Notes: generated by a model from the letters alone, not told the origin. A stretch of DNA of 64,000 nt from an uncultured Azospirillum sp. (GCA_900538765.1 UQAB01000008.1:481-64480), one strand, 5' to 3'. Numbered from the stretch's first letter, positions 21,321 to 64,000 are shown. Translations and numbers: made by a program.

Positions 21321-21357
21321 GGTCAATTATTTAATTTATTTTACTTGGAGAATTAAA

Positions 21358-21561: not shown

Positions 21562-21581
21562 GCTTATGCAGGCTTAAGAAA

Positions 21582-21623
21582 AACGCCGGGTTGCAGGGCT
21601 TGTAATCCGGCGTTGTTTTATTT
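21582..21623 (+). terminator. Hairpin with a U-rich tail between the small nrd ORF and nrdG (terminator or attenuator)
   Basis: The 8-bp stem AACGCCGG/CCGGCGTT has a 17-nt loop and is followed by GTTTTATTT. Confidence 0.45.
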
Positions 21624-21648
21624 GAATGGAATTTTAGGAGTAGGGGGA

Positions 21649-23696: not shown

Positions 23697-23856
23697 TTTT
23701 TCCTCTTTTCTCAAATTATAAATTAAACCTAAACTACCCCAAGAATGTCAGCCATGCAATAATTTATTTTTTTAATTTTTCGAAAAACAAAAAGTTGTTT
23801 TCTTTGCCTTCCTGTGTTATACAGGGCTAAATTTGACTTGAATAAGAGATTTGTTT

Positions 23857-41466: not shown

Positions 41467-41477
41467 TTTTCTGTCCT

Positions 41478-42770: not shown

Positions 42771-43288
42771 TACGCCTGTTTATCCTTATCTATAAATACC
42801 GGAGCGTCTTGAGATGCGCTCTGCCCGCCGTCAGCCAAAAGTTTATCCATAAGCTGGTCGATGTTCATACCGGCGCCGACTGTCGGGTCATCGGCTTTTG
42901 TCGGAACGGCGCCTAAAGCTTCTTTCATCTTTTGAATTTCGGAAGCATCTTCTTTAATCATATCGGGAGAAGAATTGTTTTGCAACTCTTGCTGATATTC
43001 TTTCAGGCTTTTGTGAAAAGCCGCCATGCCGCCTTTAATTTTTTGCTCGACATAAGGATAAAGCTCGCGGTGCTTCATTATATATTCGCCGACATCGCTG
43101 ATTTCTTCAAGAACGTCTAAAATATAACCATAATACGGATATTCTTCCATGGCAATATTTCCCATACGGACGCAGCGTGCGGCAATACGGGAGATTGTGC
43201 GGTCATAGTAGTCCTTCAAAAGAATAAAATTATTCAGATACCACAGGGATTCTTTGCTGACCGGCGGCAGATTATGATTAGTTTCCAT
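42770..43288 (-). CDS. Hypothetical soluble protein
   Basis: 172 aa with no TM segment. Its stop overlaps the next start by 1 nt. The SD sequence lies in a hairpin (see findings). Confidence 0.5.
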   Translation of the reverse strand: METNHNLPPVSKESLWYLNNFILLKDYYDRTISRIAARCVRMGNIAMEEYPYYGYILDVLEEISDVGEYIMKHRELYPYVEQKIKGGMAAFHKSLKEYQQELQNNSSPDMIKEDASEIQKMKEALGAVPTKADDPTVGAGMNIDQLMDKLLADGGQSASQDAPVFIDKDKQA

Positions 43289-43402
43289 AAAACGGCTCCT
43301 TTACATCTTATCTTAATGTAAAGGAGGCATAAGCGTTTGTAAATTCTTTTGTTTATGCTTTTACACAGTATTTGTAGCGGAGAAAAGCGGAGGCCCGTAT
43401 AT

Positions 43403-45826
43403 TTATGACGGCATGGCAAAGGGATCATCGTCAGCGGCGGTGGATAATCCCGAAATTTTAAATTCAGGCATATCTTCTTTTTGAAGTTTGTTAATACCGC
43501 CGATTTCCGCAAACGGCGCCGCAACATTCTGAGAAGTCGGAGATGCTTCTCTGGCCTTTGCAATGTTGAATTCTTCGTTATTGTTGTCCGCCGGAATTTT
43601 CTGAATCTGTAACGGCTCCGCCCGGACTGAATCCGCTGTTGAAATATCATCATTGCTTTCTGCTTCGCCAGTTGTTGTTTGAGCCGCTTCTTCAGTATTG
43701 GAAACAACCGCGGAAGGGGGAAGTTCCTCTCCGGCCGCGATATCTTCTGCCGGAATATTTTCCTCATAAAAAGTTTCGGAAAAGTCCTGAGATGTTTCAG
43801 GGGCAAAATCCTGGATGGTATCTTCTGCATAAGTGTCAAAAGTGCTTTCTTCAGCATAGCCGCTGTTATCGGCCTGCTGGCTGTCATCTTCGACATATTC
43901 CCATTCCCACTCCTGGCCGTCTTCGGAACTGCCGTCGTCTTCGACATATTCCCACGTCCATTCTTGACCATCGGCAGAAGCCGTTTCATTATAATACTCT
44001 ACTTCATTGGTACTTTCCTGCATATATGTATCAACCGGAATATCCTGCTCCTGAGGGGGATAAGAAGCGAAAGCTGTATTATCGACAGGCATAGGCTGAA
44101 CCGTTTGTGAAGCCGATGCCGGAGTGAAGCCCCAACCGAAATCATCATCCTGTTGATCCTGAATATCATCCGGGATACTCATAATCGGGGATGAAAACAA
44201 AGGATTGGAGGCTTTGGACTGGAACGGTGTTGTGGCCGCCCTCTGAAATCCGCTTGGCATTGGCTGAGACACTGGCTGCATCTGAGAAAAAACAGGATTG
44301 ACCGCGGGCTGTTGCACTTGCTGTTGAGATAAAGATGAAAAAGGTATATCCTGAGGTTGTGATACCTGTTCTGCACTTGGCTGGAGAACGCCGGAATCCT
44401 GTTGCGGTGCTGTTGGCTGGGGCGTTTCCTGCCGGAAAGCATTGTCTTCGCTTTTATTTTTATTTTTCTTCTTTTTTTTCTTTTTCTTTTTGATGGTTTC
44501 TTCTTTTTCTGCCGCAGCTTTCTTTTCATCCCCGTCAATATCGGCAAATAAATCATCGGCAGTCAAAACGCCGTCGTCTTCCGGTTCATTTTCTTCATCG
44601 GTTGGAGCATCTTCTTTGATTTCTTCCAAATCTGCCGGCGCTGCCGCTTGCGGTTGTTCCTCCAAAGGCGCCTCCTCTGATTGAGGCTGTGAAGCCGGTA
44701 TCGGAGCATCCTGCCCCGGCAGCAGAACCGGAGCCGGAACCCCGTTTTCTAAATCGGAGTCAAGGCTTTCGAGGTTAAGGTCGTCATTAATCGTCTTGCA
44801 CCCGGACATCTGGATGCTTTTGGAAACGTCAAGCAACGCTTTTTGCAATTCGGTCTGCATTTCCAGAATTTTCATATTTTCCTGCTGGAAAGTTTGCAGA
44901 ACGTCAATAATCATCTGCGTTGAATTCATATTGCTTTCTTTGAGAACTGTCGCTAAGACATTTTCCAGTTTGTCTGACTGGAAAGAAGACATCTCTTTCA
45001 GCATTTCGGTAGACGGCATAACAGAACCTTTGCCTTCGCTGTCAACAGAAGCCACCGCAGCCATTGACATTTCGACAACTTTTGAATTTGAAGCACTGAG
45101 CATTTCAGCGACTTTTTTCTGAGATTCGCCGATAATCTCCGCCAGTTCCCGATTCCCGGCGTGCTGGGCTTCGGCATTCGTTTTAAGTGCCTGAGTGATA
45201 ATTTGAACCAGATCTTCTTTTAAGGATTCGTCTGCAACGATTTTCAACGGGCCGGATAAAGCAGCGTTGCCTGATCCTATTTTTCGTTCAATTGACTGCT
45301 GGATTTTATTCAGTGTTTCAGCCGGAAGTTTTGATAGGTCAATCCCCTGAGCATCTTTAATTTCTTCAACGTCCCGTTTCAGGTTATTCATTTCCCGACG
45401 CAGTTGAGAGGCGACATTGTCTATTTCCTGCATGTTTGCCGCAGGAGCTGCCTGCGGGCGGATTTGCGACTGTGCTTCCGCTAAGGCACTGGCTAAAATC
45501 TTGGCTTTTGAAATTTCATCGCTGATTTCCGGAGTGTTTGCGACAACAGTGGCCTGTGTCTTTTCCATTCCGGCATTTTGCTCCAGATTGTTGACATATT
45601 CCTGAAGAACGGAACCGCCCGGAAGAGAAGCAAACATCCCTTTGACCGAAGCCGGCTGTTTCAAAAGCAACTCATCAAATTCTTTACGTTTTGCCGCGGT
45701 GAAAATATGCAGCTGCCTGAAAATATTTAAAAAACGCTGTGCCGCAATCACAGGGTCTTCTTCACCGCCGTGTTTGTTAAATATTTGCGTAAATTCCGCG
45801 CCTTTTTCTAAGTCACTTTCAGCCAA
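43403..45826 (-). CDS. Large acidic repeat-containing protein (807 aa), TTG start
   Basis: It has no signal peptide or TM segment. It has coiled-coil-like Ala/Glu/Gln regions, a Lys9 run, and a Gln/Pro-rich and Asp/Glu-rich C-terminal half with the duplicated DGQEW.WEYVEDD. Confidence 0.55.
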   Translation of the reverse strand: MAESDLEKGAEFTQIFNKHGGEEDPVIAAQRFLNIFRQLHIFTAAKRKEFDELLLKQPASVKGMFASLPGGSVLQEYVNNLEQNAGMEKTQATVVANTPEISDEISKAKILASALAEAQSQIRPQAAPAANMQEIDNVASQLRREMNNLKRDVEEIKDAQGIDLSKLPAETLNKIQQSIERKIGSGNAALSGPLKIVADESLKEDLVQIITQALKTNAEAQHAGNRELAEIIGESQKKVAEMLSASNSKVVEMSMAAVASVDSEGKGSVMPSTEMLKEMSSFQSDKLENVLATVLKESNMNSTQMIIDVLQTFQQENMKILEMQTELQKALLDVSKSIQMSGCKTINDDLNLESLDSDLENGVPAPVLLPGQDAPIPASQPQSEEAPLEEQPQAAAPADLEEIKEDAPTDEENEPEDDGVLTADDLFADIDGDEKKAAAEKEETIKKKKKKKKKNKNKSEDNAFRQETPQPTAPQQDSGVLQPSAEQVSQPQDIPFSSLSQQQVQQPAVNPVFSQMQPVSQPMPSGFQRAATTPFQSKASNPLFSSPIMSIPDDIQDQQDDDFGWGFTPASASQTVQPMPVDNTAFASYPPQEQDIPVDTYMQESTNEVEYYNETASADGQEWTWEYVEDDGSSEDGQEWEWEYVEDDSQQADNSGYAEESTFDTYAEDTIQDFAPETSQDFSETFYEENIPAEDIAAGEELPPSAVVSNTEEAAQTTTGEAESNDDISTADSVRAEPLQIQKIPADNNNEEFNIAKAREASPTSQNVAAPFAEIGGINKLQKEDMPEFKISGLSTAADDDPFAMPS

Positions 45827-45982: not shown

Positions 45983-46954
45983 TTACAGATTAATGGCAAC
46001 AATCTTATGAATTTTATTCAAATCGTCATTACCGATTTCTATCCTTTCGTCAGGATTCCATCTTAAGCCGTACAATTTCCCGTCTTCGTCTTCACGAATG
46101 CTGAGTATTTTAGCCTCATTGGGGGCGGAATAATAAACGGCAATGTCGCCGACGCTGACAACATCGCTGGGGTCGGCAAACAAAATAGAACGTGTCGGCA
46201 ACAGGCTGCCCAGTCTTCTGGTGCACAAATTAATGGCGTAAACATCTTTTTTGCTGATGAGCTGCGGCGGGCAATCAACTTTTTTCAATTCGTTTTCCAT
46301 ATCAATGATAATGTCTCCGTCTTTTCCGGCAGTTCCGTATACAGAAACTTTCGGACATTCCTGAGCGGAAACGGTAAAGGAGGAGATAGCGCCGCGCGGC
46401 GTAGAAAGAAGCTTATATTTGGCATCGTTTCTCTGAATGATTTCTTCAAGCATACCTTTATCGTCAAGGCTTTTGATTTCTTCTTTCAAGTCTTCCGGTG
46501 TCATATCCAAGGCTTTGGAGATATTTTTAAATTCCTTGTCGGAAACTTCTCTCTGTCCCATTTCGATACGGTGGTAAACGGACAATGTCATGTCAGAACT
46601 TTCGGCAACTTCAATCAACGTCAGATTCTTTTCGTTGCGGATTTGTCTTAAACCGGCGCCAAGCGTCTTCAAACCGCTTTTTTCGTTGATTTTGTTTCTT
46701 CTTTCCTGTTCTCTGCGCCAGGATTGAACGACCTCGACCTGAGAATTCTGTTCGTTAACAAACAAATCCTGCAACGGACAGTCTAAGAATTCTGCAACAC
46801 GGACCAGCTGTTCCTGATCAACTCTCCGATAACCTTTTTCAATTTTTGAAATTGCGGAAAGGCTGACAGCCAGATGATCTGCCAACTCCTGCATTGAACG
46901 GCCGCGAAGTCTTCTGTACATTCTGATTTGGTTGGGGAAAATAATTTCTTCCAT
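45983..46954 (-). CDS. Transcriptional regulator with two XRE-type HTH domains and an S24 (LexA/CI)-like C-terminal domain
   Basis: HTH 1 reads IRMYRRLRGRSMQELADHLAVSLSAISKIEKG. HTH 2 reads LRQIRNEKNLTLIEVAESSDMTLSVYHRIEMG. The C-terminus LGSLLP...VGDIAVYY...AKILSI follows the G-S-x-x-P ... K layout of S24 peptidases. Confidence 0.65.
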   Translation of the reverse strand: MEEIIFPNQIRMYRRLRGRSMQELADHLAVSLSAISKIEKGYRRVDQEQLVRVAEFLDCPLQDLFVNEQNSQVEVVQSWRREQERRNKINEKSGLKTLGAGLRQIRNEKNLTLIEVAESSDMTLSVYHRIEMGQREVSDKEFKNISKALDMTPEDLKEEIKSLDDKGMLEEIIQRNDAKYKLLSTPRGAISSFTVSAQECPKVSVYGTAGKDGDIIIDMENELKKVDCPPQLISKKDVYAINLCTRRLGSLLPTRSILFADPSDVVSVGDIAVYYSAPNEAKILSIREDEDGKLYGLRWNPDERIEIGNDDLNKIHKIVAINL

Positions 46955-47089: not shown

Positions 47090-50000
47090 TTATTTAAATC
47101 CCTCTAACGGCGTTTGCGTCCCCGTGTTGGCAATCTGTTCTTGAAATTCGCCGAGTTCTTCTGCGGAGAACATAACCTGGTCGGAAGGGATTCCGTTGGC
47201 AAATTGTCCCAGGCTGTTCATGCCGTTTCCGTACAAATTATGATAATAATTTGTGAAAGAATACGCATTTTCTACAGATTTCGGGTCAATTTCTCCATTT
47301 TTGTAATGGTAACGCGACCGTCTGTTTATAATACCGTCGGAAGAATATTTGGTAGCATTGTTGCGGAAAGCCGAGATTGTTTCCAGCTCAGTCAGAATAC
47401 GCCCGTTTTCACCGAAGGTTATGCTCATGTTCGTCGTTGTTCCGTCAGTATTTTGCTGTGCCAGTGAAAACGTACTGCGTCCTTGAGCATCCACTCCGGA
47501 AGCAAGCGTCCGGGAACGGAAACTGCGTGACATATCGGGAACCTGCAAGCCGGCGAAACGTTCTTTAATCATCTGTTCCATAACGGCGAGTTTAACTGTT
47601 TCGGCATCCTGTCCGGAGTTTTGCATAATATTGTTTAGGGCAATCTGATTGACGGAGCCGTCTTTGTTAATCAAATGTTTTCCGGCTGCGGCCATCATTT
47701 CAGTTTTCTGTTGCGTAATTTTTCCGCTTTTGTCTTTGACGACAGTCGATTTGATATAACCGTCGTTTGAAACGGTTGTCGATTCTCCGTTTTTCTTTGT
47801 CGTTGTTATGTTGATGACTTTTTTACCGTTTTCGTTTGTTGAGGTCGTTTTGGTAATAGTCTGTCCGCGGAGATTTTTATAAGAGTATCCGCTGCCGTCT
47901 TTGTTAACCGTAAACTTGCGGCCCCAGCGGTTTCGATAAGACATTGTTCCGTCCCCGTTGTCAACGCCTTTTTCTGCGGCCTGTTCCATACGGTTGCGCA
48001 TTTTTCTGTTTTGGTTGGCCATTTTGAGGTCATTGTATTTTTCGGAAACAGTTTCTTTAACCATACTGCCGCCTTTTTGGGCAGCGCTCAAAGCAACGCC
48101 GCCGGCTTTGTTTGCCACACCTCTGGCGCCGCTGGCGGCGAGGGTGCCGACTTGCGAACCGATTCCGCCGGTGCTGATTCCGTTAGAGAACCTGCCGGCA
48201 AATTTATTGGCTTCACCGAGAACTGCCCAGCCCAAAAGCATGATAAAAACAAGTTTTAAGAGGTTAATTGTCCACCAGGCAATAGATTTAGCACCGGTGA
48301 TGATAGCCTCGTAAGCAGATCCGGAGTCGCCCGTTGAAACTAATGAACGGTCAAAGGCGTCAGCCGTTACATCGTCCAGCGCTTTTATTAAAATCGCAAT
48401 GACGATAGACAGGAACATAAAGCTGAACATGGCATTAAGGAATGTTCCCCAAACTTTACCGACAAACATCTGTCGTGTTGTCTTAAATGCATACCCGCCA
48501 ATGGCAACAGGTAACAAAACAACGGCGACACAGATTTGCAAAAGAGCGTCAACCAGCAGCCACGGATAGATTATCAAGAGAAGCAGAGCGCCAATCCACA
48601 ACAAGAGACCGGTAATCAGATAGCCAAAATGCGGGAAGATAACAATATGGTGCCAGGACTTGATATAAAAGGCAATACAAATAGAGGATGAGCCGACAGC
48701 CATAATATCAAGAATTTTTCCCTGAATCGCGTCAATCAGGCAAAGGATGTTAACACCCATGCTTGGCGGCAGCCCCCCGCCGTCGGAAGCGGATAAAATA
48801 CCGCCGGTGCTGTCAGGATTGCAGGTAACGCCGCCGTCACCGGAAATCGCCAGCTTTCCGAGTTCCATGCCGGTATTGAAAATCGGCTCAAGAATCAGAC
48901 TCATAAAATCATTGCTTCCGGCGCTGAGAATGATAATGACCACAATGACGATAAAGCCTTGGTTAAGCAGTATTTTTGCCAGATTGCGGGGATCTTTCGT
49001 TTCAAAGGAGGAAATATAGGACAGAATAGTCATCGCTATCCATAAAGCCGTTCCGACAATAACCAGATTGATAACGCCGCTGACCAGCGTGTCATAAGCC
49101 GCTTTAGCCATTATGCTGGCGGTGTTGAACAATATTCTGAAAATATCGCAGAAAATACAGCTTTTGAAGGAATTTCTGTAATTGCTGACGCTGCAATCCC
49201 TGCTGCCGCCGCCTTCCTGAGCAATTTGGTTGGCCGCTGCTGTTGCTGAAGAATTGACCACGGAACCGCTGCTGCTGCCGTCATAGTTAGGTGTTTTGCC
49301 CATTTCATCTTCTGTACACAGACGCATTCCCGTCATGTCAATGGCTATTTCATCGGGGGACATGCCGTAGTATTTCGACCCGGCTATTTTTGATTGTTCA
49401 ATTGCATCGCGTAATTGCGCTGAGAGTAGTGTTCTTTCAATGTCTTCTTTTGCACGTCCCTGTACGGCCAGATAAGTTTGTTCACCTCCGCTTTCCAAAT
49501 AGTTTTTATAAGAACCAGCACGGATATTGTTGGCATCAATAATAAGATTTCTATCTGATGTATCTAAGTTTTTGCCATATTTTTCCTGCAGTTGCGATAA
49601 CATTTTCTTAAACATTGCCGGTCCGGCAACATCAGCGGCAACAAAAGTCATTTGTACCTCAGGAGAGAGGGCATCCCAATTAAGCCCTGCATTCTTAACC
49701 AGCCTCTTGGTATCGCCGACATAAGTGTCATAGTTGACGGTATATTGAAAGTCAAAAAATTCTCTGTCAGAGCCCAAAGCTTCCCATGCGGCGCGGAAAG
49801 CGGCGTTTTGCTCCGGATATGCTTGATCATTGCAAGCGTATTTGATGGTTGTATTTAAGTCATTGCCTTGAGACAGTTTGGCGAACAACTCCGGTTTCTC
49901 TTTCTCAAGTCTGGTCATAAAGTTTCTGAAGTTACCGAAACTTCCGTCAGATACTTTGCCGCCAGCGGTAGAACCACAGGCCATTTGGTTAGCGCCATAA

Positions 50001-51085
50001 GAACATCCGCCTTTATCTTTTCCTTCCGTTCCGGGTGCATTGCCGTAACAGCCGTTGTATTTTTTATACCAGTTGGTTTTTCCCGCATCACGTCCGGATT
50101 CTCCGGTTGCACTGAGCATCAGCATATCGTCTTCCGGGAACATTTCAACACAGTCGCTGGACGCCATGGCTTTATCAACTTTTTTCTGTTCTTCGCTTTT
50201 TTCCTCTTCCGGTTCTTCTTCAGTTTTTTCACAGGCTTGCGGATTCTTTGAACAATCCCGGCACTGCATGGCATCATAATCTATTTGGCCTTGATTGGCA
50301 TAAAACGGATTAGTGCTTTTTTCTTCGCATAAGGTTTGGATACTGTTGCACAAAGGATCCAAAACCGGAAGCGCATTTGTATTTCGGGCATTGCCGTCAC
50401 GCATTTCAAAATGCAGGTGTGAACCGTAATAATTTTCAATAATGTTGCCGTTTCCGTCACAGTTAGAACCACCGGCAAGGCCTATTTGCTGTCCTTTTGT
50501 TACACGAGCGCCGTCAGAAACATTAATTTGGGATAAGTGCATATAAACTGTTGTATATTCGTTCTTTGAATTCTCGGAATATGCCGCCTGAGAGGCTGAG
50601 AGAGATTTCGTATGAACAATTTTAACAACGCGTCCGCCGCCGTGGTTACAGCCGTTGACATAAGCAATGCCGTCAGCTGCCGCGGTAACCGGTGTCCCGC
50701 TCGGGACAGCATAGTCAACGCCGTTATGGTTTCTTTTATTGCTCCATCCTGTGCCGCGATAACAAACGTCTTCAGGAATTCTGGCAACACTCCCCTTAAC
50801 AGGCATTGTGTTGACACAACTGTTTTTATTCTGATTTCTGACGCATTGCGGATTAATATCATTTCTTTTCTCATTTCCGGGAGGACATTCTGTCGTCCAT
50901 TTGCCGTTGCTGCTGCTTGGCTGGCATTGATTATAGCTGCTGCCACCTGAATTTTCAGGTGTTGAATAGTTCGGGGAATAAAGCTGCCCGGCGGCTTCCT
51001 GCGTCAGGCAAAAAGCGGCAATGACACACAAAAGTAATTTGGTGATTCGTAATTTATATATATTTTGCATAATCTTACTCATCAT
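47090..51085 (-). CDS. Giant fusion protein (1331 aa): signal peptide, M23 peptidase, unassigned periplasmic region, TrbL/VirB6-like polytopic core and a long C-terminal domain
   Basis: M23 motifs are HNGVD and HLHFEM. There are 6 or more TM segments, including VVLLPVAIGGYAFKTTRQMF (the P...F..T signature of TrbL/VirB6). It is paralogous to the three upstream genes, and ATGA overlaps the upstream gene. Confidence 0.6.
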   Translation of the reverse strand: MMSKIMQNIYKLRITKLLLCVIAAFCLTQEAAGQLYSPNYSTPENSGGSSYNQCQPSSSNGKWTTECPPGNEKRNDINPQCVRNQNKNSCVNTMPVKGSVARIPEDVCYRGTGWSNKRNHNGVDYAVPSGTPVTAAADGIAYVNGCNHGGGRVVKIVHTKSLSASQAAYSENSKNEYTTVYMHLSQINVSDGARVTKGQQIGLAGGSNCDGNGNIIENYYGSHLHFEMRDGNARNTNALPVLDPLCNSIQTLCEEKSTNPFYANQGQIDYDAMQCRDCSKNPQACEKTEEEPEEEKSEEQKKVDKAMASSDCVEMFPEDDMLMLSATGESGRDAGKTNWYKKYNGCYGNAPGTEGKDKGGCSYGANQMACGSTAGGKVSDGSFGNFRNFMTRLEKEKPELFAKLSQGNDLNTTIKYACNDQAYPEQNAAFRAAWEALGSDREFFDFQYTVNYDTYVGDTKRLVKNAGLNWDALSPEVQMTFVAADVAGPAMFKKMLSQLQEKYGKNLDTSDRNLIIDANNIRAGSYKNYLESGGEQTYLAVQGRAKEDIERTLLSAQLRDAIEQSKIAGSKYYGMSPDEIAIDMTGMRLCTEDEMGKTPNYDGSSSGSVVNSSATAAANQIAQEGGGSRDCSVSNYRNSFKSCIFCDIFRILFNTASIMAKAAYDTLVSGVINLVIVGTALWIAMTILSYISSFETKDPRNLAKILLNQGFIVIVVIIILSAGSNDFMSLILEPIFNTGMELGKLAISGDGGVTCNPDSTGGILSASDGGGLPPSMGVNILCLIDAIQGKILDIMAVGSSSICIAFYIKSWHHIVIFPHFGYLITGLLLWIGALLLLIIYPWLLVDALLQICVAVVLLPVAIGGYAFKTTRQMFVGKVWGTFLNAMFSFMFLSIVIAILIKALDDVTADAFDRSLVSTGDSGSAYEAIITGAKSIAWWTINLLKLVFIMLLGWAVLGEANKFAGRFSNGISTGGIGSQVGTLAASGARGVANKAGGVALSAAQKGGSMVKETVSEKYNDLKMANQNRKMRNRMEQAAEKGVDNGDGTMSYRNRWGRKFTVNKDGSGYSYKNLRGQTITKTTSTNENGKKVINITTTKKNGESTTVSNDGYIKSTVVKDKSGKITQQKTEMMAAAGKHLINKDGSVNQIALNNIMQNSGQDAETVKLAVMEQMIKERFAGLQVPDMSRSFRSRTLASGVDAQGRSTFSLAQQNTDGTTTNMSITFGENGRILTELETISAFRNNATKYSSDGIINRRSRYHYKNGEIDPKSVENAYSFTNYYHNLYGNGMNSLGQFANGIPSDQVMFSAEELGEFQEQIANTGTQTPLEGFK

Positions 51086-53427
51086 TCTGCCTGTCCGCTG
51101 TTTTCCTGATTATCCTGAGGCTTGTCCTGTTTATCGGCGTCTTTGCCGAATTTCAGCTTTCTGCCGAATTTTTCCATACTGCGACCTGCTTTCTCAATCA
51201 TTTCGCCGCTTTTCTTCATAACTTTTCCAGAAGCTTTAACGGCCTTTCCTGCGGCAACAGTCGCTTTACCGCCGGCCTGTACCGCCGCGCCGCCGGCATA
51301 AACCGCTGCGCCGGCAATCATCATCGGGACACCGATAATGGCGCCAAAACCGGTTGCGCTTAATCCTTTTCCTGCTGTCATGATGCCCTTGCCGCCATGG
51401 GCTATGCCCTGACCGGCCTTGTCAACGCCTTTTCCGGCTTGTTCTACAGCCTTACCGCTCTGTTCAACGGCTTTACCGCTTTGCTTGATGGCTTTACCGC
51501 TTTGTTTAACCGCGGTTCCGGCATTGGGTGATTTATTGTTTTTGCCTTGTTCTTTGTCACTCTTGGTAAATTTGTCTTTAACAAATTTGGCCGCCTTTCC
51601 GACAGTTGCCCCTGCAACCGCGCCAAGAACTTTTCCTGCACCGCCGGTTGCCGCACCGACAGCGGCTTTTCCTGCGCCGACCGTAGCTTTTTTCGCGATA
51701 TCCGTCATTCTGGTCATTTCGCTGTGCATCGGGGAGGCATTAGCCATAAGGCCGCCGCCGAAAAATTTGTTAACATAGTCATCAACGGTCGAGCGCACCA
51801 GTTTGATTGAATATAAATAAGCAAACAGAATAAGGATGAAATAAGGCCCGGTAATGTCAAAAGTATCGGAAATCCACTTGGAGTCTCCTTTCTCAACCCG
51901 TTCAAACAACTCGGGAACATCCCGCAGCGTAACACTGATCATCGCCATGGCATAAGACGTGGTGATTGCTAAAAAGGCAAAAATCGCCGCCGAACTTAAC
52001 ATGGTTTTAATACAGGTTTTTACTTTTCCCGCTGTAATGGAAAAAGGCCACAATGCCATAAGCAGCGGAAAAATCATGATAGCGATGCCGATTTTGAATG
52101 AAATGTCCAGCAGATAATAAGAAACAGCCAACACCAGCATAAATCCGGCAAACCAGATTGCCGCGCCGCAAAGCCATATCCAGACATTAGGAACGATAAT
52201 CTGAAAATCCATAATTGAGTGGTTCACCCAGGCGCCGGCATTGACGGAATGACAGGTGAGAGCATGGCCGATAACCAGATTGGTGGAAACGACCCTGTCC
52301 AGACTTTCATTGAAGCCCATGATTTTATTCAGCATGTCGGCCGAGAGAAGCTCAACCCCGCTGTATGTGTAGTCTGGCGAGGGCGTCATGCTCAGGTGAC
52401 TTTGCGAGTTTGCCAGAATTGCCGTGCCAAAATCAGCGCCGGCGACCAAAATAGGGCTGACAACGTAAATCATAAAAACTTCGATTCCCGATTCGATAAC
52501 CACATAGGCAAACAGTATCTTAAATCCTTGAATCAATAGGGTGTTAACAATGCTGGACGGTTCAAGGCTGGCGACGGAAGAAATTGTCTTGAGCGCCCAG
52601 AATGCAACCCATAAAAGCGTGGCGACCAACAAAACCTGAACGGCTGCGCGTCGGCACAAATCGCTAACTTTCGTGCAGGCGTTAATAAATTTCTCAAGCA
52701 GCGTTTTGACAACAATACAGGAATAACAGGAAGATTGATATTTCTTCTCCATTTCGGCAACTTTGCAGACACTGTTATCGCCCGTTCTTATTGCGACGCC
52801 AACTAAACGGTTGTCTTTTGCATTTTGAAGATTTTTCAGTTGTTCCGCGGCTTCTTTTTCCGTGATAAGGCCATTTTTAAGATCCCTGTTGATTTGATTT
52901 TCAACAGCCGCATATCTGGGGTCTTTAATCTCTATCTCTCCTTTGTCATATTTATCCTTGTCATCTTGTGTTGCCATATTGACTCTTGACGCTAAGATTT
53001 CAAGTTCGGCAGCTTTATTGAAAGAATTGCTCATCTTATTTACAGCATTTTTATATTGCTGTTCATTGAGAAGTCCTTTTTTCTTTCTTGATTTCAATTC
53101 TTTTTCAACCAAAGGTCTGTATTCATACATTGATGTTGCCAAAGTTGAATAAGTCATAATCATTTGAGCAATTTCTTCCGGACTTCCGTCACCTTGCATT
53201 AAGTCAGCCAGATATTGTTTATCATTCTGCACATATTTGTGATAATTTTTTACAGTATATGTACCGTTATCTAATTTCTTAAGATCGTCTGCGGCATAAT
53301 AATCCGGCGGATTGACGGCGGCCTGAACATTTAAAGAAAATAAGCATAACAAGATACTGACAAAGAATGAGAAAATAGTCTTTGTCCTTATTTTGTTTTT
53401 AGCTATGTCCCAAATGTGTTTCATCAT
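51082..53427 (-). CDS. TrbL/VirB6-like polytopic membrane protein (781 aa) with a Gly/Ala/Lys-repeat tail
   Basis: It has a signal peptide, a roughly 230-aa periplasmic coiled region, a TM core with YYLLDISFKIGIAIMIFPLLMALWPFSIT, and a C-terminus with the (KQSGKAV)n heptad repeat. Confidence 0.55.
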   Translation of the reverse strand: MMKHIWDIAKNKIRTKTIFSFFVSILLCLFSLNVQAAVNPPDYYAADDLKKLDNGTYTVKNYHKYVQNDKQYLADLMQGDGSPEEIAQMIMTYSTLATSMYEYRPLVEKELKSRKKKGLLNEQQYKNAVNKMSNSFNKAAELEILASRVNMATQDDKDKYDKGEIEIKDPRYAAVENQINRDLKNGLITEKEAAEQLKNLQNAKDNRLVGVAIRTGDNSVCKVAEMEKKYQSSCYSCIVVKTLLEKFINACTKVSDLCRRAAVQVLLVATLLWVAFWALKTISSVASLEPSSIVNTLLIQGFKILFAYVVIESGIEVFMIYVVSPILVAGADFGTAILANSQSHLSMTPSPDYTYSGVELLSADMLNKIMGFNESLDRVVSTNLVIGHALTCHSVNAGAWVNHSIMDFQIIVPNVWIWLCGAAIWFAGFMLVLAVSYYLLDISFKIGIAIMIFPLLMALWPFSITAGKVKTCIKTMLSSAAIFAFLAITTSYAMAMISVTLRDVPELFERVEKGDSKWISDTFDITGPYFILILFAYLYSIKLVRSTVDDYVNKFFGGGLMANASPMHSEMTRMTDIAKKATVGAGKAAVGAATGGAGKVLGAVAGATVGKAAKFVKDKFTKSDKEQGKNNKSPNAGTAVKQSGKAIKQSGKAVEQSGKAVEQAGKGVDKAGQGIAHGGKGIMTAGKGLSATGFGAIIGVPMMIAGAAVYAGGAAVQAGGKATVAAGKAVKASGKVMKKSGEMIEKAGRSMEKFGRKLKFGKDADKQDKPQDNQENSGQAE
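51427..51510. repeat. Four tandem 21-bp repeats in the coding sequence
   Basis: Units resembling GGCTTTACCGCTTTGCTTGAT occur four times and encode the GKAV(E/K)QS heptads of the 781-aa protein. Confidence 0.8.
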
Positions 53428-54806
53428 TATTTACCGCCGCCCTTAAATTTTTTAGCAACAGTCTGCATAGCTGATTTAGCCTTGCCCTTGCTCCATTTTA
53501 AAAGTTCTTTGGATCCTCCTTTGGCAGCCCCCCAAGCTTTTCCAGCACCGTTCTTAGCCTTATTAAGAACAAAACCGCCGATTCCCAAAGTGAAGAATTT
53601 GAGAACCATAGCGCCGGCCTTGGCGCCTTTGTCTTTGAATGAACCTGAGGAATCGCCGCCGACCAGCGTATTGGTCAAATCCTGGGCAATCTTCATGGTC
53701 GATTGGATTAAAAACGCTAACAGTAACAGGCAAAGCACCGGAATACTGAATTCCTTAAAGTTTTGCCGGAAATCTTCTATATTATCGCCGCTTAATCCCA
53801 AAGCGGGAGAAATCATAATTTCATGCATGGCCAGAAGAGCAACGGCAATCATAATTGCCACAAACATCATATATGCGGCGGAATTTATCATTGTCATAAA
53901 TCCAAAAGTTGCCCAGGAACGGGTTTGTTTGAAAGCATAAGCCAAAATCAGTGCCGGTAAAATTGTCACCACGATAGTGAAACGGAAGAGGGTATCGACC
54001 AGATAAAAAATAAATGCCAGCTTGATAAATGTAAACATGAGAAAAATAATGCAACCGATAACCAGAGCCATAAATCCCGTGTCATGCAATGTTTCAAAAG
54101 CCAGATAAAAGCCGATTCCCAAACGTTCGTTAATTGCGCAGGCGATACACGACATCATATTAATCGGCGCGGCCGGAAATGATGTCAAATTCTCATCTGT
54201 CACCAGGTTTTCCGGAACACAGGCAATCTTTTGTCCGTATTCTATTTTTTCTCCAAGAAATGTAAGCGACAAATCTTCTTGTCCCGTAGCTGCGCTGGCG
54301 GCATTGAGCATTTCGCCGGCAAATTCAAGAAACGTGTAATAGAGCGGAAAAATAATTGTGTTCAACACAAAAGCCAACCCGGCTGTGGAACTGGCCAACA
54401 GGCCGCAGACAAAACAGATAAAGAGCTGCTTGAACACTTCTTTCCACACTTCGGCAATATTTTCTTCCTGTAGAGAACTGACATGGCGCATCAGCCGGAA
54501 AGAAAACCATACGGCAAAAGCAACCATAATAAAAGCCAGAGCGCCGTCAGTCATTTGCTTATAAAGCCCGAGGGAAATAGAACCCATCTGTCGGTACATC
54601 AGTTCCAGAATGCTGCTTTGCCAGCAGTCACGTTGGTCCTTAGCTAGTTGGCTTGAACTTCTGTCCGCGCCGCTCATCGCCGTTTGTTGATTAGAGTTGT
54701 TTGTTCCTTTAACATCAGTACCGCTGCAGGCCGTCAACAGGAAACATACTGAAATGACTAAAATCAGTATTTTGAGAATTCCGACTATGTTTCCCTTTTT
54801 CAACAT
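53427..54806 (-). CDS. TrbL/VirB6-like polytopic lipoprotein (459 aa)
   Basis: It has the lipobox LLTACSG, a TM core with FYLVDTLFRFTIVVTILPALILAYAFKQTRSW, and a Gly/Ala/Lys-rich tail. Confidence 0.55.
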   Translation of the reverse strand: MLKKGNIVGILKILILVISVCFLLTACSGTDVKGTNNSNQQTAMSGADRSSSQLAKDQRDCWQSSILELMYRQMGSISLGLYKQMTDGALAFIMVAFAVWFSFRLMRHVSSLQEENIAEVWKEVFKQLFICFVCGLLASSTAGLAFVLNTIIFPLYYTFLEFAGEMLNAASAATGQEDLSLTFLGEKIEYGQKIACVPENLVTDENLTSFPAAPINMMSCIACAINERLGIGFYLAFETLHDTGFMALVIGCIIFLMFTFIKLAFIFYLVDTLFRFTIVVTILPALILAYAFKQTRSWATFGFMTMINSAAYMMFVAIMIAVALLAMHEIMISPALGLSGDNIEDFRQNFKEFSIPVLCLLLLAFLIQSTMKIAQDLTNTLVGGDSSGSFKDKGAKAGAMVLKFFTLGIGGFVLNKAKNGAGKAWGAAKGGSKELLKWSKGKAKSAMQTVAKKFKGGGK

Positions 54807-54815
54807 CGGTTTTTC

Positions 54816-57584
54816 CTAATTATATCTAGGGTCAACGCTTAACAAAACATTTAGTTTGTCTTTAATTTCGCCGACTCTTGTCGTTGCTGCATTTCTGGTT
54901 GCTTCTTCATTAAAGATTTTTCCGTTTCGGGCAGAAATAGCGCGGCGTTGGTTAACATAAGTGTTGACAGCATCATTATTAACGGTCTGCTGTAATTGTT
55001 GCTCATTTTGTTGCGCCTGCACATAAGCTTTATTGACGGCCTGAACTTTAGCCTCTGCCGCCTGAGCCATTTGTTCAAATCTGGCGGCCTGTGGCGTTCC
55101 CCGGGCGGCAGTCGCCTGTTGACGGGCTGCAGCTGCTTCTGCTTGGGCTTGCTTGGCAGCTTGTTCTGCTTTCAGCGTTTTTTCTTTTGCTTTTTGCAGT
55201 TCCTGAGAATGAGCCGCAAAATCATGAAGATTCCGTTCTGCTTCCCTCATAGCCGCCGTAACCTCCGGCGCTTCGTTCGGATTTATCCGCGGACCGGCAC
55301 TGCCCGGAGAAGCCTGCTGTCCGTTATTTCCGGTTTGCCGATTTTGTCCCTGACCTTGCCCCTGACCTTGATTCTGCCCCTGTCCTTGGCCGTTATTTGA
55401 TTGCTGTTGCTGGTTCTGTGGGTTATCTCCAATCTGTTGATTCTGTTGTTGCTGGTTCTGCCGATTATTGCCGAACTGCTGATTTTGCTGTTGGTTAGCA
55501 CCAGACTGTTGGTTTTGTTGTTGAGCCTGAGAATTTGATTTGGCTGCTTTGCCGCCAAATTTTCCTAATCCCAAAGCTCGGCCGATTCCGCCGGTTACCT
55601 TGTCTTTTCCTTTGTTTAATGCCGCAGTAATGCCGGTACGGCGTCCGACAGCCCCCATAGCTTTGCCGGCAAGGCCGACCACCCCGCCGACTTCGCCTTT
55701 TTTCGTCCCGACAGCCAGACCAGCCGCACCACTGTAAGCCAGAGTACCGAGAGAAGAACCGATTTTGGCATCTCCGCCGCCGCCGGCAAAAGTTGAAGCC
55801 AGAGCCGCCGCCTGCGCGGTTAGCTTGAAACCAAACAAACAGCAGGCCAGCAAAACCAAAAATCCGGAAAAACCAATATCCAGAAGGGCCTGTAAAACAC
55901 GAATGTCATTACCGTCAATAGCTTTTTGCAATGCGCTTCCGCCACCTTTTCCGCCGGTCAAAGACATCAGGATAAGCTGAATATTAACGCTGACAACCAA
56001 GCCCATCATGGCATAAGTAAAGAAAGTGTTCAAAAACATGGTCCAGCCTTGTTTGGTATAGCCACTGGTCATTTTGAACGGCCAACAGGCAATCAAAAAC
56101 GGCATAAGCGCACCGAGTATGCCGACACGGACGGTAGCGTCAATCAAATAGAAAGCAAAGGCTAAAGCAATTAAGAGAGAAAAGCCCCAGATAATCAAAC
56201 CTTGGAAAAACATGCTGAAATCCCAGATAGCATTTTCAATTTTTGTAACCACGAGATTGATAGAGGAAGCACCGGCATTGCGCGCCACGCACATCAAGGT
56301 AGAGCCGATACTCTGGGCTGTAGCAATTTCGGCCTGAACAGAACGGATAAAACAATCGAGTTTGACGTACAGGTAAGGCGGCAGGACTCCATCGTTAATA
56401 TTCATTTTTCCCGCCTGTGTGTTCAGATTAAGCTCATTGGAGCACCATTCGACATAACCGCTGCCGTTTTCAAACAAAACTGCTGAACCAAATTCCATGC
56501 CGGCAGATAAAATCGGACCGACAGCCAGGTTATAAATATATGATGCGTTGCTTAACAGAATATAGGCAAACATAACCTTAAAAGCCTGAATAAAAATTTC
56601 ATTGGTAAATTTGGGCGCATCTTGTTTGGTGAATGCGCTGACATATTTCAAAACCAAAAAGGCGATGTAAATGGCAAAACCAAGTATCATAACATAAGAA
56701 ATAGAGGTTGCCAAAACGGCATACGAATTGGTTGCCATTGTTTGTGCTGCGTTGAAAATAGTCAAAAACATCGGACAAAAGATGCAGCTTTGATTCTCGG
56801 CAAGCTTCGCCGGTAGGGGAATACATCCTTTGGTATTGCCCACAACGGTCTGATATTCGTCGTTTGAACCGAGTCCGACAGCCCCCATTCCTTTTGATAA
56901 ATAAGACTGGTCTTTCTTAATAAAGTAAATCGTTTCGCCTTGCTCTGTTACATATTTATAGACTTTTTGATTTGGAGATATTTCATCATAGGAATTCATC
57001 ATAACCTGTGCGTTGCGCGTATCATCACCGATTGCAATCATTTCTTCTGCAATTTTTGCCAACTGCGTATTTTTTGGATATTTTTCATAAACCATATCAA
57101 GCAGTTTTCTGGCTGTTTCACCTTTTTCTTCTGTAAATGCAGGTTTTATAATGGTATTCCATGAGTCACCTAAATGACTGGTAAAACGATCCCATGTTAT
57201 TTTTACACTGTTAAGAGCAGCATCCCCGGCAGCCGAAAATTCACCGGTAAAAAGATTTTTTAGCGCAGAGGCATTTGAAGAAATCAAATTCTTAGTTGCC
57301 TGAAAGTCATCTCCCAATTCTTGCATGCCTAACGCAGCTACAAATTCTGCTTTTTTTGCCCAGTATTTTTTATCATTCTCTTCATATTTTTTTTGCCACT
57401 TTTCTCTTTCTTTCATTAACTCATCTGCAGAGGCTTCTTCTTGAGCAATAAATCCTTTAATTTCATAAGGGTTGATTGGACCTTTGTTGTTGGTTGTCTG
57501 AGCAGAGGAAAAGCTTGTAAGAAAACAGCCCGCGAGAACCAGAAGCGGGAATAAAATATAATGTATTTTGCTCTTTTTCATCAT
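54816..57584 (-). CDS. TrbL/VirB6-like polytopic protein (922 aa) with a Gln/Asn-rich and coiled-coil C-terminus
   Basis: It has a signal or lipobox sequence LLVLAGC and a roughly 260-aa periplasmic N-domain. The TM core contains CIFCPMFLTIFNAAQ and FYLIDATVRVGILGALMPFLIACWPFKMTSG. The tail is G/A/K-rich, then Q/N-rich, then Ala/Gln coiled coil. Confidence 0.55.
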   Translation of the reverse strand: MMKKSKIHYILFPLLVLAGCFLTSFSSAQTTNNKGPINPYEIKGFIAQEEASADELMKEREKWQKKYEENDKKYWAKKAEFVAALGMQELGDDFQATKNLISSNASALKNLFTGEFSAAGDAALNSVKITWDRFTSHLGDSWNTIIKPAFTEEKGETARKLLDMVYEKYPKNTQLAKIAEEMIAIGDDTRNAQVMMNSYDEISPNQKVYKYVTEQGETIYFIKKDQSYLSKGMGAVGLGSNDEYQTVVGNTKGCIPLPAKLAENQSCIFCPMFLTIFNAAQTMATNSYAVLATSISYVMILGFAIYIAFLVLKYVSAFTKQDAPKFTNEIFIQAFKVMFAYILLSNASYIYNLAVGPILSAGMEFGSAVLFENGSGYVEWCSNELNLNTQAGKMNINDGVLPPYLYVKLDCFIRSVQAEIATAQSIGSTLMCVARNAGASSINLVVTKIENAIWDFSMFFQGLIIWGFSLLIALAFAFYLIDATVRVGILGALMPFLIACWPFKMTSGYTKQGWTMFLNTFFTYAMMGLVVSVNIQLILMSLTGGKGGGSALQKAIDGNDIRVLQALLDIGFSGFLVLLACCLFGFKLTAQAAALASTFAGGGGDAKIGSSLGTLAYSGAAGLAVGTKKGEVGGVVGLAGKAMGAVGRRTGITAALNKGKDKVTGGIGRALGLGKFGGKAAKSNSQAQQQNQQSGANQQQNQQFGNNRQNQQQQNQQIGDNPQNQQQQSNNGQGQGQNQGQGQGQGQNRQTGNNGQQASPGSAGPRINPNEAPEVTAAMREAERNLHDFAAHSQELQKAKEKTLKAEQAAKQAQAEAAAARQQATAARGTPQAARFEQMAQAAEAKVQAVNKAYVQAQQNEQQLQQTVNNDAVNTYVNQRRAISARNGKIFNEEATRNAATTRVGEIKDKLNVLLSVDPRYN
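55316..55540. repeat. Low-complexity CAG/CAA-type (Gln/Asn) and GQ-dipeptide microsatellite-like coding tract
   Basis: It encodes QQQNQQSGANQQQNQQFGNNRQNQQQQNQQ...GQGQGQNQGQGQGQGQ in the 922-aa protein. Confidence 0.75.
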
Positions 57585-57586
57585 GG

Positions 57587-57760
57587 CTATTTTCCTGTCC
57601 AGGGATTCCCTAAAATCTTAAAAGCGATGGCAAAAAGGATAACAATAGTTCCGATAGCCGTCCACAAAACCGTTTTTCCGGAAAAAAGCTCCAAAATGCC
57701 CGATGCGTATATGGCAATTACGATAAAAATAATTGCAAAATTTATAAGGACCGATTTCAT
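57587..57760 (-). CDS. Small two-TM membrane protein (57 aa), first gene of the VirB6-like array
   Basis: I chose the ATG at 57760 (GGAGAA 6 nt upstream). The sequence is MKSVLINFAIIFIVIAIYASGILELFSGKTVLWTAIGTIVILFAIAFKILGNPWTGK, and its stop is 2 nt before the next ATG. It may be a VirB2/VirB3-type analogue, but no motif supports that. Confidence 0.45.
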   Translation of the reverse strand: MKSVLINFAIIFIVIAIYASGILELFSGKTVLWTAIGTIVILFAIAFKILGNPWTGK

Positions 57761-57842
57761 CAAGCTTTCTCCGCACAGTTTTTTACTCTTATATAATACC
57801 ATAAAAAATCTCAAACTTATGTTACAGTTTTTTGATTTTTTA

Positions 57843-58697
57843 TTATTTGAATTTGCCCCTTTTTATAAAATTTAAGCTGGCATTAATGATTCTCTTGTTT
57901 TTAAAGGGACTAAAGCCGTTGTTCTTGATAACAATGGATTCTTTTGCTTTGTTCCAAGCTGCATCTTCAGGCGTGTTAAACCAGGATTTAATACATTTAG
58001 GCAGAAAACCTAAGATTCCCCATTCCCCTTCGCCATGCGTTGAAATAATGCCGATGTCGATTTTGGGATAAATATAAGGCGTGTCGTTGGTTATGACTGG
58101 ATTCGCTTCGCGCAGCATCGGGCCGAAAATCCAGCGGAATAAACGATATTTGCCGAATTTGCGGGCAAAACCATTGCCTTTGAGTGGCGGTGAAATTAAA
58201 ACGGCTTTGTTAATTTTCAAGTTCTTTTTCCAAGGTTCGGAAACATCTTGTTCCAGAAGTTTTTTCAAAAGAAGCCCGCCCATCCCGTTGGTGATAAAAG
58301 AAATTTCCTGCACGTCTTCAAGATGATTAAGAAAAAAGTTTAGCTGTTTCACGTGGGATTCCAAGCTTTTTCTGGTAGACGGATAATTAATGGCCGCAGC
58401 CAGATAGCCTCTTTTCAAGGCTTCCCGCCATAATGGTTTAAAAATGTTTTTTGTTTCGCCAAGGCCATGCAGCATAACAATCATATGCCCCTTTTGCCGA
58501 GCCAGCTGATACATGCTGATATAAGTAACAAAAGCCTGGCGGCATTCTCCGAAACTACCCTCGTAACGCCGGATGTCCCAAGGGTCAAGCAAACGAAATT
58601 CCTGGGTTTTGTAATGTCTTTGGATTCGCCATTTCTGGTAAAAGAAAACATCCTCCCAAAATTGTCCGCCGCCGCATGTAAAAAAATTAAATTTCAT
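57843..58697 (-). CDS. Alpha/beta-hydrolase-fold protein with a degenerate nucleophile elbow
   Basis: MLHGLGETKNIF (an HG oxyanion-type region) is followed by FITNGMGGLL where G-H-S-M-G-G is expected. The nucleophile codon is GGG (Gly) at 58284-58286. Confidence 0.5.
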   Translation of the reverse strand: MKFNFFTCGGGQFWEDVFFYQKWRIQRHYKTQEFRLLDPWDIRRYEGSFGECRQAFVTYISMYQLARQKGHMIVMLHGLGETKNIFKPLWREALKRGYLAAAINYPSTRKSLESHVKQLNFFLNHLEDVQEISFITNGMGGLLLKKLLEQDVSEPWKKNLKINKAVLISPPLKGNGFARKFGKYRLFRWIFGPMLREANPVITNDTPYIYPKIDIGIISTHGEGEWGILGFLPKCIKSWFNTPEDAAWNKAKESIVIKNNGFSPFKNKRIINASLNFIKRGKFK

Positions 58698-59529: not shown

Positions 59530-61036
<1,507 letters not shown>

Positions 61037-61121
61037 AAAGACAAAAAAGTATGGTATACCGTCTACGTATCCTCTTCGACAAGAAAAGAAAAACTGGTGA
61101 GAGACCTTTAAGTTGAATTAA

Positions 61122-61198
<77 letters not shown>

Positions 61199-61205
61199 CT
61201 TAATT

Positions 61206-61281
61206 GGGGGTATAGCTCAGCTGGGAGAGCACCTGCTTTGCAAGCAGGGGGTCAGGAGTTCGATCCTCCTTACCTCCACCA
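61206..61281 (+). tRNA. tRNA-Ala (anticodon TGC)
   Basis: GGGGGTATAGCTCAGCTGGGAGAGCACCTGCTTTGCAAGCAGGGGGTCAGGAGTTCGATCCTCCTTACCTCCACCA. Confidence 0.95.
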
Positions 61282-61459
61282 AGAATTTCTTTTCAGGATA
61301 GTTATAAAGAAACAGTGAATAAGAAAAAGAAACGAATTAGAGTAAAATCTAAGGAGAATAAAAAAGTAAAAGTATAATTACACCTTTTATGATATATGAA
61401 AATATGAAATAAAACGGGTAAATTTTACTGAGAAGTATAGATAAGCAAATTATTTATAC

Positions 61460-64000
<2,541 letters not shown>

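Follow-up and report, generated by a model that had tools for sequence, protein, structure and literature searches.

The DNA analysed here, a 64,000-nucleotide (nt) stretch from an uncultured Azospirillum sp. (GCA_900538765.1 UQAB01000008.1:481-64480) referred to below as the window, carries on its minus strand an array of four tandem genes (47090-57584) whose products were assigned to the VirB6/TrbL family of type IV secretion systems (T4SSs). A preliminary description of the window had reported four adjacent open reading frames (ORFs) of 922, 459, 781 and 1331 amino acids (aa); all were found where they had been placed, and their products were named B6a, B6b, B6c and B6d respectively:

54816-57584, minus strand, B6a, an extended VirB6 of 922 aa
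53427-54806, minus strand, B6b, a VirB6 paralog of 459 aa
51082-53427, minus strand, B6c, a VirB6 paralog of 781 aa
47090-51085, minus strand, B6d, a VirB6 paralog of 1331 aa with predicted wall-hydrolase domains

The four genes are translationally coupled: 9 nt separate B6a from B6b, the stop codon of B6b overlaps the start of B6c (TAATG), and the stop codon of B6c overlaps the start of B6d (ATGA). A small ORF encoding two hydrophobic helices stops 2 nt ahead of the B6a start and is likewise coupled to it. Internal promoters or terminators did not stand out within the array, and a fifth copy was not found in the window with a hidden Markov model of the core.

All four proteins begin with a Sec or lipoprotein signal and share a hydrophobic core of approximately 370 aa. 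The common core had been noticed in the preliminary description, and homology was established by all-against-all BLASTP of the four proteins (21-29% identity over 230-370 aa, 34-134 bits) and by a four-way alignment; the core of B6c was 24-26% identical to those of B6a and B6d over approximately 300-350 aa. No stretch of the four-core alignment was conserved enough for a degenerate scan, and a single protein served in its place. The block peptides previously picked out were all present (FYLIDATVRV at aa 478, FYLVDTLFRF at aa 267, YYLLDISFKI at aa 437 and WLLVDALLQI at aa 842 of B6a, B6b, B6c and B6d respectively), and the pattern proposed for this block, P-x6-8-F-x-x-T, was sharpened by the alignment to P-x7-F-x2-T, with L, D, P, F and T invariant. 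The Cys motif described ahead of the first core helix was also recovered, as CIFCPMF (aa 267, B6a), CIFCDIF (aa 643, B6d) and CYSCIVV (aa 234, B6c); in B6b the first Cys alone was kept (CWQSS). The Gly/Ala/Lys-rich tails were real: Gly, Ala and Lys made up 54, 54, 48 and 39% of the 90 aa past the last hydrophobic helix, compared with a mean of 21.8% in the other 35 proteins of the window and a maximum of 37.8% over 10,604 windows of 90 aa. These segments had a predicted local distance difference test score (pLDDT) below 50 in the AlphaFold2 (AF2) models. Unrelated extensions had been reported beyond the tails of all four proteins; they are present, and mutually unrelated, in three, and absent from B6b, which is mildly extended. 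In B6a, B6c and B6d the extensions measure 185-630 aa at the N-terminus and 190-330 aa at the C-terminus.

Membership of the four paralogs in the VirB6 family is supported by profile matches, paralogy and fold, in agreement with the assignment originally proposed. B6d passed the Pfam model PF04610 (TrbL/VirB6) at 32.7 bits (gathering score, 25.9 bits), and the same model matched 42 of 63 aligned family members (E<=1e-3, best 1.6e-11), as well as 13 of 22 B6d orthologues (E<=1e-3). Two paralogs were modelled with AF2: B6a (aa 240-660; pLDDT 76.8, predicted template modelling score 0.72) and B6d (pLDDT 74). In a Foldseek search with the B6a core, the top 7 PDB matches were all TrwI, the VirB6 of R388, and the rest were noise; the best match was 8rt9_F (E=1.6e-4, probability 1.0, template modelling (TM) score 0.61 on the target). 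The B6d core matched TrwI too (E=5e-4, TM score on the target 0.61-0.68), and TrwI was the sole convincing core match (probability 1.0) for both modelled paralogs among 350,542 PDB chains. The identity of the matched chains as TrwI was confirmed by sequence. Because they are paralogous to B6d and because of the fold (modelled for B6a and B6d), B6a, B6b and B6c were placed in the family as well. None of the four matched TraG_N or a related Pfam model at E<=0.1.

Aligned with hhalign, the family profile and the single TrwI sequence gave a weak (E=0.044) but collinear match, in which the family C-x-F-C-P-L-F element fell on TrwI residues 5-13 and the invariant P and T fell on GPLFILALIWQPT of TrwI. 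On this alignment the VirB6 core starts where canonical VirB6 starts, and everything ahead of it is added. Kyte-Doolittle scans, in agreement with the AF2 helices, gave at least five hydrophobic helices in the core. Extended VirB6 proteins have been defined by at least five hydrophobic helices plus at least one large hydrophilic domain (PMC12857230), and B6a, B6c and B6d fall within this definition, B6b being only mildly extended. The preliminary description had expected the P..F..T block to lie in the membrane, an expectation outdated by the structure of the R388 machine, in which two N-proximal helices of VirB6 alone lie in the inner membrane and the remainder forms a periplasmic pentamer (PMC12857230).

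The array was compared with 14 gut and rumen alphaproteobacterial genome loci that contain it (L001-L014; further loci carry other L or P numbers). The order a-b-c-d was orthologous in 14 of 14, every position best matching the same paralog type. This supports the earlier view of diverged, subfunctionalised paralogs and indicates that they are old and probably non-redundant. Across these loci the array comprised four to six ORFs: rumen species had an additional a-type copy, and the c paralog was split in L006-L010 and L014 (rumen; e.g. L008 8039-11360) into the N-terminal third of the core and the rest. In L011-L013 (e.g. L011 12569-15688) the c paralog was one ORF, with a loop insertion of approximately 330 aa containing a weak M23 match. 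A sensitive profile search returned 1865 clusters (50% identity), of which 1022 fell below 1e-30; the sequences thus delimited make up a family that is large but discrete, and not a tail of general TrbL. Homologues were found solely in uncultured Alphaproteobacteria of the human gut, the rumen and other animal guts. The exact B6b protein was indexed in 208 metagenome-assembly blocks, and the eight ENA places among the matches listed were human gut.

The modules of each protein, all on the minus strand, were as follows:

B6a aa 1-28, signal peptide
56823-57500, B6a aa 29-254, helical variable N-extension
55635-56822, B6a aa 255-650, VirB6 core
B6a aa 597-686, Gly/Ala/Lys tail
54819-55526, B6a aa 687-922, C-extension, Q/N-rich and with an Ala/Gln coiled coil
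54726-54737, B6b aa 24-27, lipobox LTAC with Cys27
53592-54659, B6b aa 50-405, core
B6b C-terminus, short Gly/Lys-rich tail without further extension
52765-53319, B6c aa 37-221, N-extension
51658-52764, B6c aa 222-590, core
51085-51657, B6c aa 591-781, C-extension with GKA repeats and an extra hydrophobic segment
B6d N-terminus, signal peptide
50390-50731, B6d aa 119-232, Peptidase_M23 domain (Pfam, 69.4 bits)
49445-50020, B6d aa 356-547, VgrG3-like domain of chitosanase fold
48086-49195, B6d aa 631-1000, VirB6 core
B6d, after the core, Gly/Ala-rich linker
47093-48028, B6d aa ~1020-1331, beta-rich C-terminal domain

For the 1331-aa protein the core and the tail had been described correctly, and the M23 and VgrG3-like domains had been overlooked. 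The M23 motifs of B6d are intact (HNGVD for HxxxD, YMHL with the middle His, and HLH for HxH) and their columns were at least 90% conserved in the 22 B6d orthologues; the N-terminal domain is predicted from the profile match and these motifs to be an M23 (LytM-type) endopeptidase. The second domain matched T6SS_VgrG3-like_C (PF21277) at 27.7 bits, or 27.7-28.5 bits overall (cut-off, 27), and 10 of the 22 orthologues were matched; its model aligned with the Streptomyces chitosanase 1chk_A (Foldseek probability 1.0, TM score 0.54, root-mean-square deviation 4.4). The C-terminal 310 aa were confidently modelled as a single-layer beta sheet of the CPAP G-box/OspA type, without a catalytic look-alike. 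The full fusion was kept in approximately 20 cluster representatives (39-94% identity). More distant genomes have M23 alone, N-terminally in the d paralog (Pfam in L004 and L008; BLAST in L006, L007, L010 and L014); in L011 and L013 it was found within the c paralog's central loop. Wall hydrolases work outside the cytoplasm only, and these fusions are consequently independent evidence that the N-terminus and the loop are periplasmic.

A lipobox of the form L-x-[AG]-C was kept in all B6b orthologues examined, the residue after Cys never being Asp, and B6b is accordingly a predicted lipoprotein. A lipidated VirB6 is unusual, the usual T4SS lipoprotein being VirB7. The possibility that the helical N-extensions are fused VirB5 proteins was considered and not supported, as hhalign against TrwJ aligned the signal peptide alone; the N-extension alignment was too shallow for modelling.

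L001 is a near-identical strain (XRE regulator and VirB8 100% identical to those of the window, dnaE 98%), and in this two-lineage comparison the B6 cores were 98-100% identical. The B6c gene has 21-nt tandem repeats. The N-extension of B6c was replaced by unrelated sequence (window 52765-53319 vs. L001 5973-6800; 15% identity, against 98% in the core), and part of the B6a N-extension fell to 50-80% identity (window 56823-57500 vs. L001 1858-2620). In nine other strains sharing the exact B6b, the B6a N-extensions were identical and B6c was near-identical. Variation between strains suggests that the N-extensions are exposed to selection acting from outside the cell.

Other genes encoding T4SS components were found at a distance from the array and in related genomes. 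One such gene lies in the window:

15794-16573, minus strand, orphan VirB8 (Pfam VirB8, 60.8 bits), 31 kb from the array

Its neighbours encode a 661-aa He_PIG/OEP-like protein on one side and, on the other, a 296-aa protein beside dnaE, a placement kept in 19 related genomes; the search for VirB8 homologues returned members of the same clade only and no outgroup. An 8-kb insertion beside VirB8 in some relatives was considered as a candidate for virB9-11 and discarded, as its genes are housekeeping ones (oligopeptidase F, a nucleotidyltransferase, DUF2207 and a lysozyme). In one relative VirB10 and VirB11 adjoin the array (phmmer of fetched loci with R388 Trw queries). The block of these relatives has a conserved order: VirB8-II, VirB9, a 1100-aa protein, a giant VirB10 and VirB11. 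VirB8-II, which heads the cluster, is 30-32% identical to the VirB8 of the window and came solely from other genomes in the clade. VirB9 matched CagX (53 bits) and has a SPOR-like tail; the 1100-aa beta-flower/RHS-repeat protein lies directly ahead of the giant VirB10 (1421-1582 aa), which has TrbI at its C-terminus (120 bits) preceded by beta-flower/DUF3659 repeats (L044 1937-9993, L110 2296-9984); and VirB11 matched T2SSE (75 bits). There were 339 VirB11-related loci in all, and the best 80, which were kept, were 86-100% identical. Among the matches listed, the array and the VirB8-9-10-11 block occurred on one contig in at least three cases and in one metagenome-assembled genome (MAG) in at least four more. 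In a close relative of the window species, whose VirB8 is 89% identical, the block and the orphan VirB8 share one contig.

The genes around the array were also characterized:

57587-57814, minus strand, small ORF encoding two hydrophobic helices, 57 aa long if started at the ATG at 57760 and annotated with 71 aa in metagenome assemblies
57843-58697, minus strand, 284-aa conserved protein, directly upstream of the small ORF
45983-46954, minus strand, XRE-family regulator with a double helix-turn-helix (Pfam HTH_3, two copies, 89.8 bits)
40534-45826, minus strand, four conserved genes encoding proteins of 807, 172, 430 and 310 aa, without a Pfam or NCBIfam match
43403-45826, minus strand, the 807-aa protein of this block, acidic and largely disordered, with the lysine run KKKKKKKKKNKNK
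59530-64000, plus strand, intact 16S - tRNA-Ile - tRNA-Ala - 23S operon, approximately 400 nt from the upstream genes of the array and divergent from them

The small ORF has a conserved C-terminal ILGNP motif and homologues at the same position in L001-L004 and L011-L013; it had no Pfam or NCBIfam match, and was rejected as a VirB2 or VirB3 since hhalign gave no similarity to either protein of R388. The 284-aa protein adjoins the array in 12 of the 14 loci (31-98% identity). It has NGMGG where the GxSxG nucleophile elbow of an alpha/beta-hydrolase might be expected; a weak DUF7379 match was obtained in a homologue only, and a PDB search by sequence gave no match. Proceeding upstream from the array, the order is the small ORF with two transmembrane helices, the 284-aa protein, a lipoprotein and the rRNA operon, not virB3-virB4. 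The array-bearing metagenome contigs all stop at the rRNA operon. On the other side, the XRE regulator adjoins the array in at least eight related loci (63-100% identical), either downstream or divergently upstream.

In the four-gene block, conservation of the 807-aa protein was limited to the N-terminal ~300 aa, and a PDB sequence search with the 430-aa protein was empty. In relatives the block lies beside virB11, directly downstream in L011/L044 and convergent in L004/L138, and approximately 40 of 115 loci of 8 kb held both. L011/L044 have the conserved VirB8-II to VirB11 block beside the array and then a four-gene block of the type seen in the window (cf. 40534-45826). These proteins are candidate accessory subunits or substrates. 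The array as a whole is flanked by housekeeping genes and the rRNA operon, and the GC content is even across the region. A gene for a zeta-toxin-family kinase (48.8 bits) was also observed in the window, at 23851-24519 on the plus strand.

As to the host, the GC content is 44%, and an anaerobic ribonucleotide reductase, NrdD, and its radical-SAM activase are encoded at 19254-22350 (plus strand), which points to an anaerobic lifestyle. The named relatives are "Proteobacteria bacterium CAG:495", gut MAGs labelled "Azospirillum sp." and Candidatus Scatocola, the last filed by NCBI under Rhodospirillales. The 16S gene of Rickettsiales lies apart from 23S-5S. Given the GC content, NrdD, the intact 16S-Ile-Ala-23S operon and the filing of the relatives, the host is not evidently rickettsial. 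Among the public MAG records with these alphaproteobacterial genes, several (L029, L031, P0067, P0128, P0349 and P0358) were labelled Lactobacillus or Lactobacillaceae and are probably mis-binned or mislabelled.

The layout of the array is not unprecedented. Tandem, size-expanded and diverged VirB6 paralogs are a hallmark of the rvh system of Rickettsiales (PMC2653234, PMC8035066, PMC7648143): Rickettsia has five copies of 674-1154 aa with approximately 80% divergence, and Anaplasma, Ehrlichia and Wolbachia have four (PMC2653234, PMC8035066, PMC7648143, bioRxiv 10.1101/2025.08.29.673095). Duplicated RvhB8, RvhB9 and RvhB4, multicopy RvhB6 and the lack of VirB5 are given as its hallmarks, and the system has been called a "bona fide rickettsial signature" (PMC11077975). 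What is new is the lineage and several architectural features; no paper that ties this gut lineage to a T4SS was found. Set beside the published descriptions of rvh, the systems are alike in having four or five tandem diverged VirB6 proteins of 1.5 to more than 4 times the canonical size, hydrophilic and strain-variable N- and C-extensions around a TrbL core, T4SS genes scattered on the chromosome, a virB8-9-10-11 block (here in relatives) and two VirB8 types (the second here only from other genomes of the clade). One VirB9 was observed here in relatives, and no VirB4 or VirB5 in the flanks examined. Unlike in Rickettsiales, the array does not lie downstream of virB3-virB4, and the host is a gut or rumen anaerobe of 44% GC with an intact rRNA operon and relatives in Rhodospirillales. 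Further differences are the M23 and chitosanase-fold domains of B6d, the predicted lipoprotein B6b, the c paralog split in rumen relatives or carrying an M23 insertion in others, and the VirB10 of relatives, with 1400-1600 aa and beta-flower repeats.

Compared with canonical VirB6/TrwI (R388, A. tumefaciens), the paralogs share the core fold of approximately 350 aa (TM score 0.61-0.68 to TrwI), at least five hydrophobic helices, and collinearity between the N-terminal F-x-P-L-F element and the P...T block; they differ in sequence (14-16% identity), in copy number (four instead of one), in their signal peptides and large extensions, in the lack of an adjacent VirB5 and, apparently, in a Trp column that is Phe. 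PrgK of pCF10 (LytM, SLT, CHAP) likewise combines, within a T4SS, an M23/LytM domain, a glycan-cleaving domain and a membrane anchor (PMC12857230), but it is a separate VirB1 protein with SLT in a Gram-positive system, whereas here the domains are fused to VirB6, of VgrG3/chitosanase type and Gram-negative. A single search of the literature for M23 and a glycosidase fused to VirB6 found no such protein, the nearest analogue being this separate, multi-domain type of VirB1 hydrolase. The F-type TraG and single-copy extended VirB6 proteins also join a polytopic VirB6-like region to a large hydrophilic domain (PMC7648143, PMC12857230); in contrast to TraG, the proteins described here lack a TraG_N match, are four instead of one and have unrelated extensions.

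The reading that we favour, at a probability of roughly 0.7, is that the array, probably together with the small ORF, forms one operon for four non-redundant extended VirB6 proteins of a chromosomal, vertically inherited T4SS in an uncultured anaerobic alphaproteobacterium of the human gut. Several results weigh against it. B6a (21.3 bits) and B6b (18.1 bits) scored below the threshold of PF04610, B6c had no match to it on its own, and none of the four paralogs was matched by the NCBIfam VirB6 models. Compared by sequence with the PDB, the core profile gave chance matches alone (hepatitis B surface proteins). The column of the essential Trp of TrwI was, in the low-confidence hhalign alignment, an invariant Phe in the paralogs; a Trp occurs two residues upstream of this column in B6a and B6c only. 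None of the matches listed for VirB9-11 belonged to the window's own species. Neither the window nor any of the flanks examined (3.0 Mb of loci, phmmer with R388 single-sequence queries) yielded VirB4, VirD4, VirB2, VirB3 or VirB5, and for this reason a complete machine is not demonstrated for this genome.

By analogy with TrwI of R388, each subunit would be fixed in the inner membrane by its two N-proximal core helices, with the remaining core forming the central periplasmic stalk or platform of the machine; the N-extensions, and probably the C-extensions too, would then lie outside the cytoplasm. The Gly/Ala/Lys segment is probably a flexible linker to the C-terminal modules. Its positive charge would suggest a cytoplasmic location for these modules; the R388 topology and the surface exposure of the extended C-termini of Anaplasma VirB6-3 and VirB6-4 (PMC7648143) suggest that they may lie outside. 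Fixed order, tight coupling and the deep conservation of the four types argue that the paralogs work together and are not spares, and co-assembly into a mixed stalk would be the simplest, if tentative, arrangement. The cutting of the wall at the site of T4SS assembly is elsewhere the role of VirB1, and the predicted M23 and glycosidase domains of B6d may be a built-in substitute for it, opening the wall locally during assembly. The fast-evolving N-extensions might face the outside world or the target, and possible targets of the machine would be other bacteria, protists or host cells.

The paralogs could also be alternatives to each other, each building its own homo-pentameric stalk in machine variants that serve different targets or substrates under regulation, for example by the XRE protein. 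This has been raised for Rickettsia (PMC8035066), and would suit the distinct N- and C-modules of each paralog and the conserved regulator that accompanies the array; it is nevertheless quite unlikely, as translational coupling and the invariant order in 14 genomes favour co-expression at a fixed ratio, internal promoters or terminators do not stand out, and B6b lacks a specific module. A different function would follow if the machine were a contact-dependent, bacteria-killing T4SS and the hydrolase domains of B6d were weapons, or breached the target wall, instead of aiding assembly. Bacterial killing by a T4SS has been shown for Xanthomonas. The dense community of the gut, the kinship of the VgrG3-like domain with anti-bacterial lysozymes of type VI secretion systems, the RHS/beta-flower repeat proteins and giant VirB10 of relatives and the hypervariable N-extensions all speak for this, as does the proposal that rvh of basal free-living rickettsiae is a congener-killing machine (PMC11077975). 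We consider it improbable all the same: the hydrolases follow a Sec signal and are covalently part of a subunit anchored in the membrane, and would thus act in the producer's own periplasm unless cleaved; nor did any immunity gene, coupling protein or effector bearing a recognisable signal come to light.

That the array belongs to a mobile conjugative element (an integrative and conjugative element or a plasmid remnant) and not to a core chromosomal system would be in keeping with TrbL/VirB6 typically being a conjugation protein, and with the zeta-toxin-like gene elsewhere in the window. It is contradicted by the housekeeping and rRNA flanks, the even GC, the lack of a relaxase, integrase or coupling protein nearby, the synteny and orthology kept across at least 14 species and the 86-100% identity of VirB11 in the best 80 of 339 related loci; furthermore, the B6d core had no tblastn match among 72,556 plasmids. 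This origin was judged highly improbable. The resemblance to rvh is a more balanced matter. It falls slightly short of an even chance that it is convergent, VirB6 having been amplified independently in the gut lineage: the array does not follow virB3-virB4 as in Rickettsiales, the rRNA operon is intact, the named relatives are filed under Rhodospirillales, and the 1865 clusters of the family are discrete and do not merge into general TrbL. Against convergence stands the coincidence of several rvh hallmarks, namely tandem VirB6, two divergent VirB8 proteins, scattered loci and the virB8-9-10-11 block. The boldest extension of the favoured reading is rather doubtful as a whole: by common descent, an rvh-type system would also belong to a large clade of Alphaproteobacteria that live extracellularly and anaerobically in gut and rumen and are common in humans; their four paralogs (five in the rumen) would form one mixed pentameric stalk, whose own wall hydrolases, lipid anchor and outward, fast-evolving modules would replace the missing VirB1, VirB7 and VirB5.

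The multiplication and enlargement of VirB6 in Rickettsiales is still called a mystery (bioRxiv 10.1101/2025.08.29.673095; PMC8035066). Rickettsiales are obligate intracellular bacteria and hard to manipulate, and the same design is found here in a widespread lineage of the human gut and the rumen, with four strictly conserved paralog types (five in rumen species) to be set against the pentameric VirB6 stalk. Wall-hydrolase domains fused to VirB6, one paralog predicted to be lipidated and N-modules swapped between strains give rise to the ideas that the stalk may be mixed, that a VirB1 function may be built in and that the variable modules may be exposed. A probable large secretion machine is thereby flagged in a common, unstudied member of the human gut microbiota, and it becomes a question whether the architecture of rvh predates Rickettsiales or extends beyond them. 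If descent is shared, the origin of the rvh design would move outside intracellular parasitism, and a non-intracellular system would become available for asking why VirB6 is multiplied.

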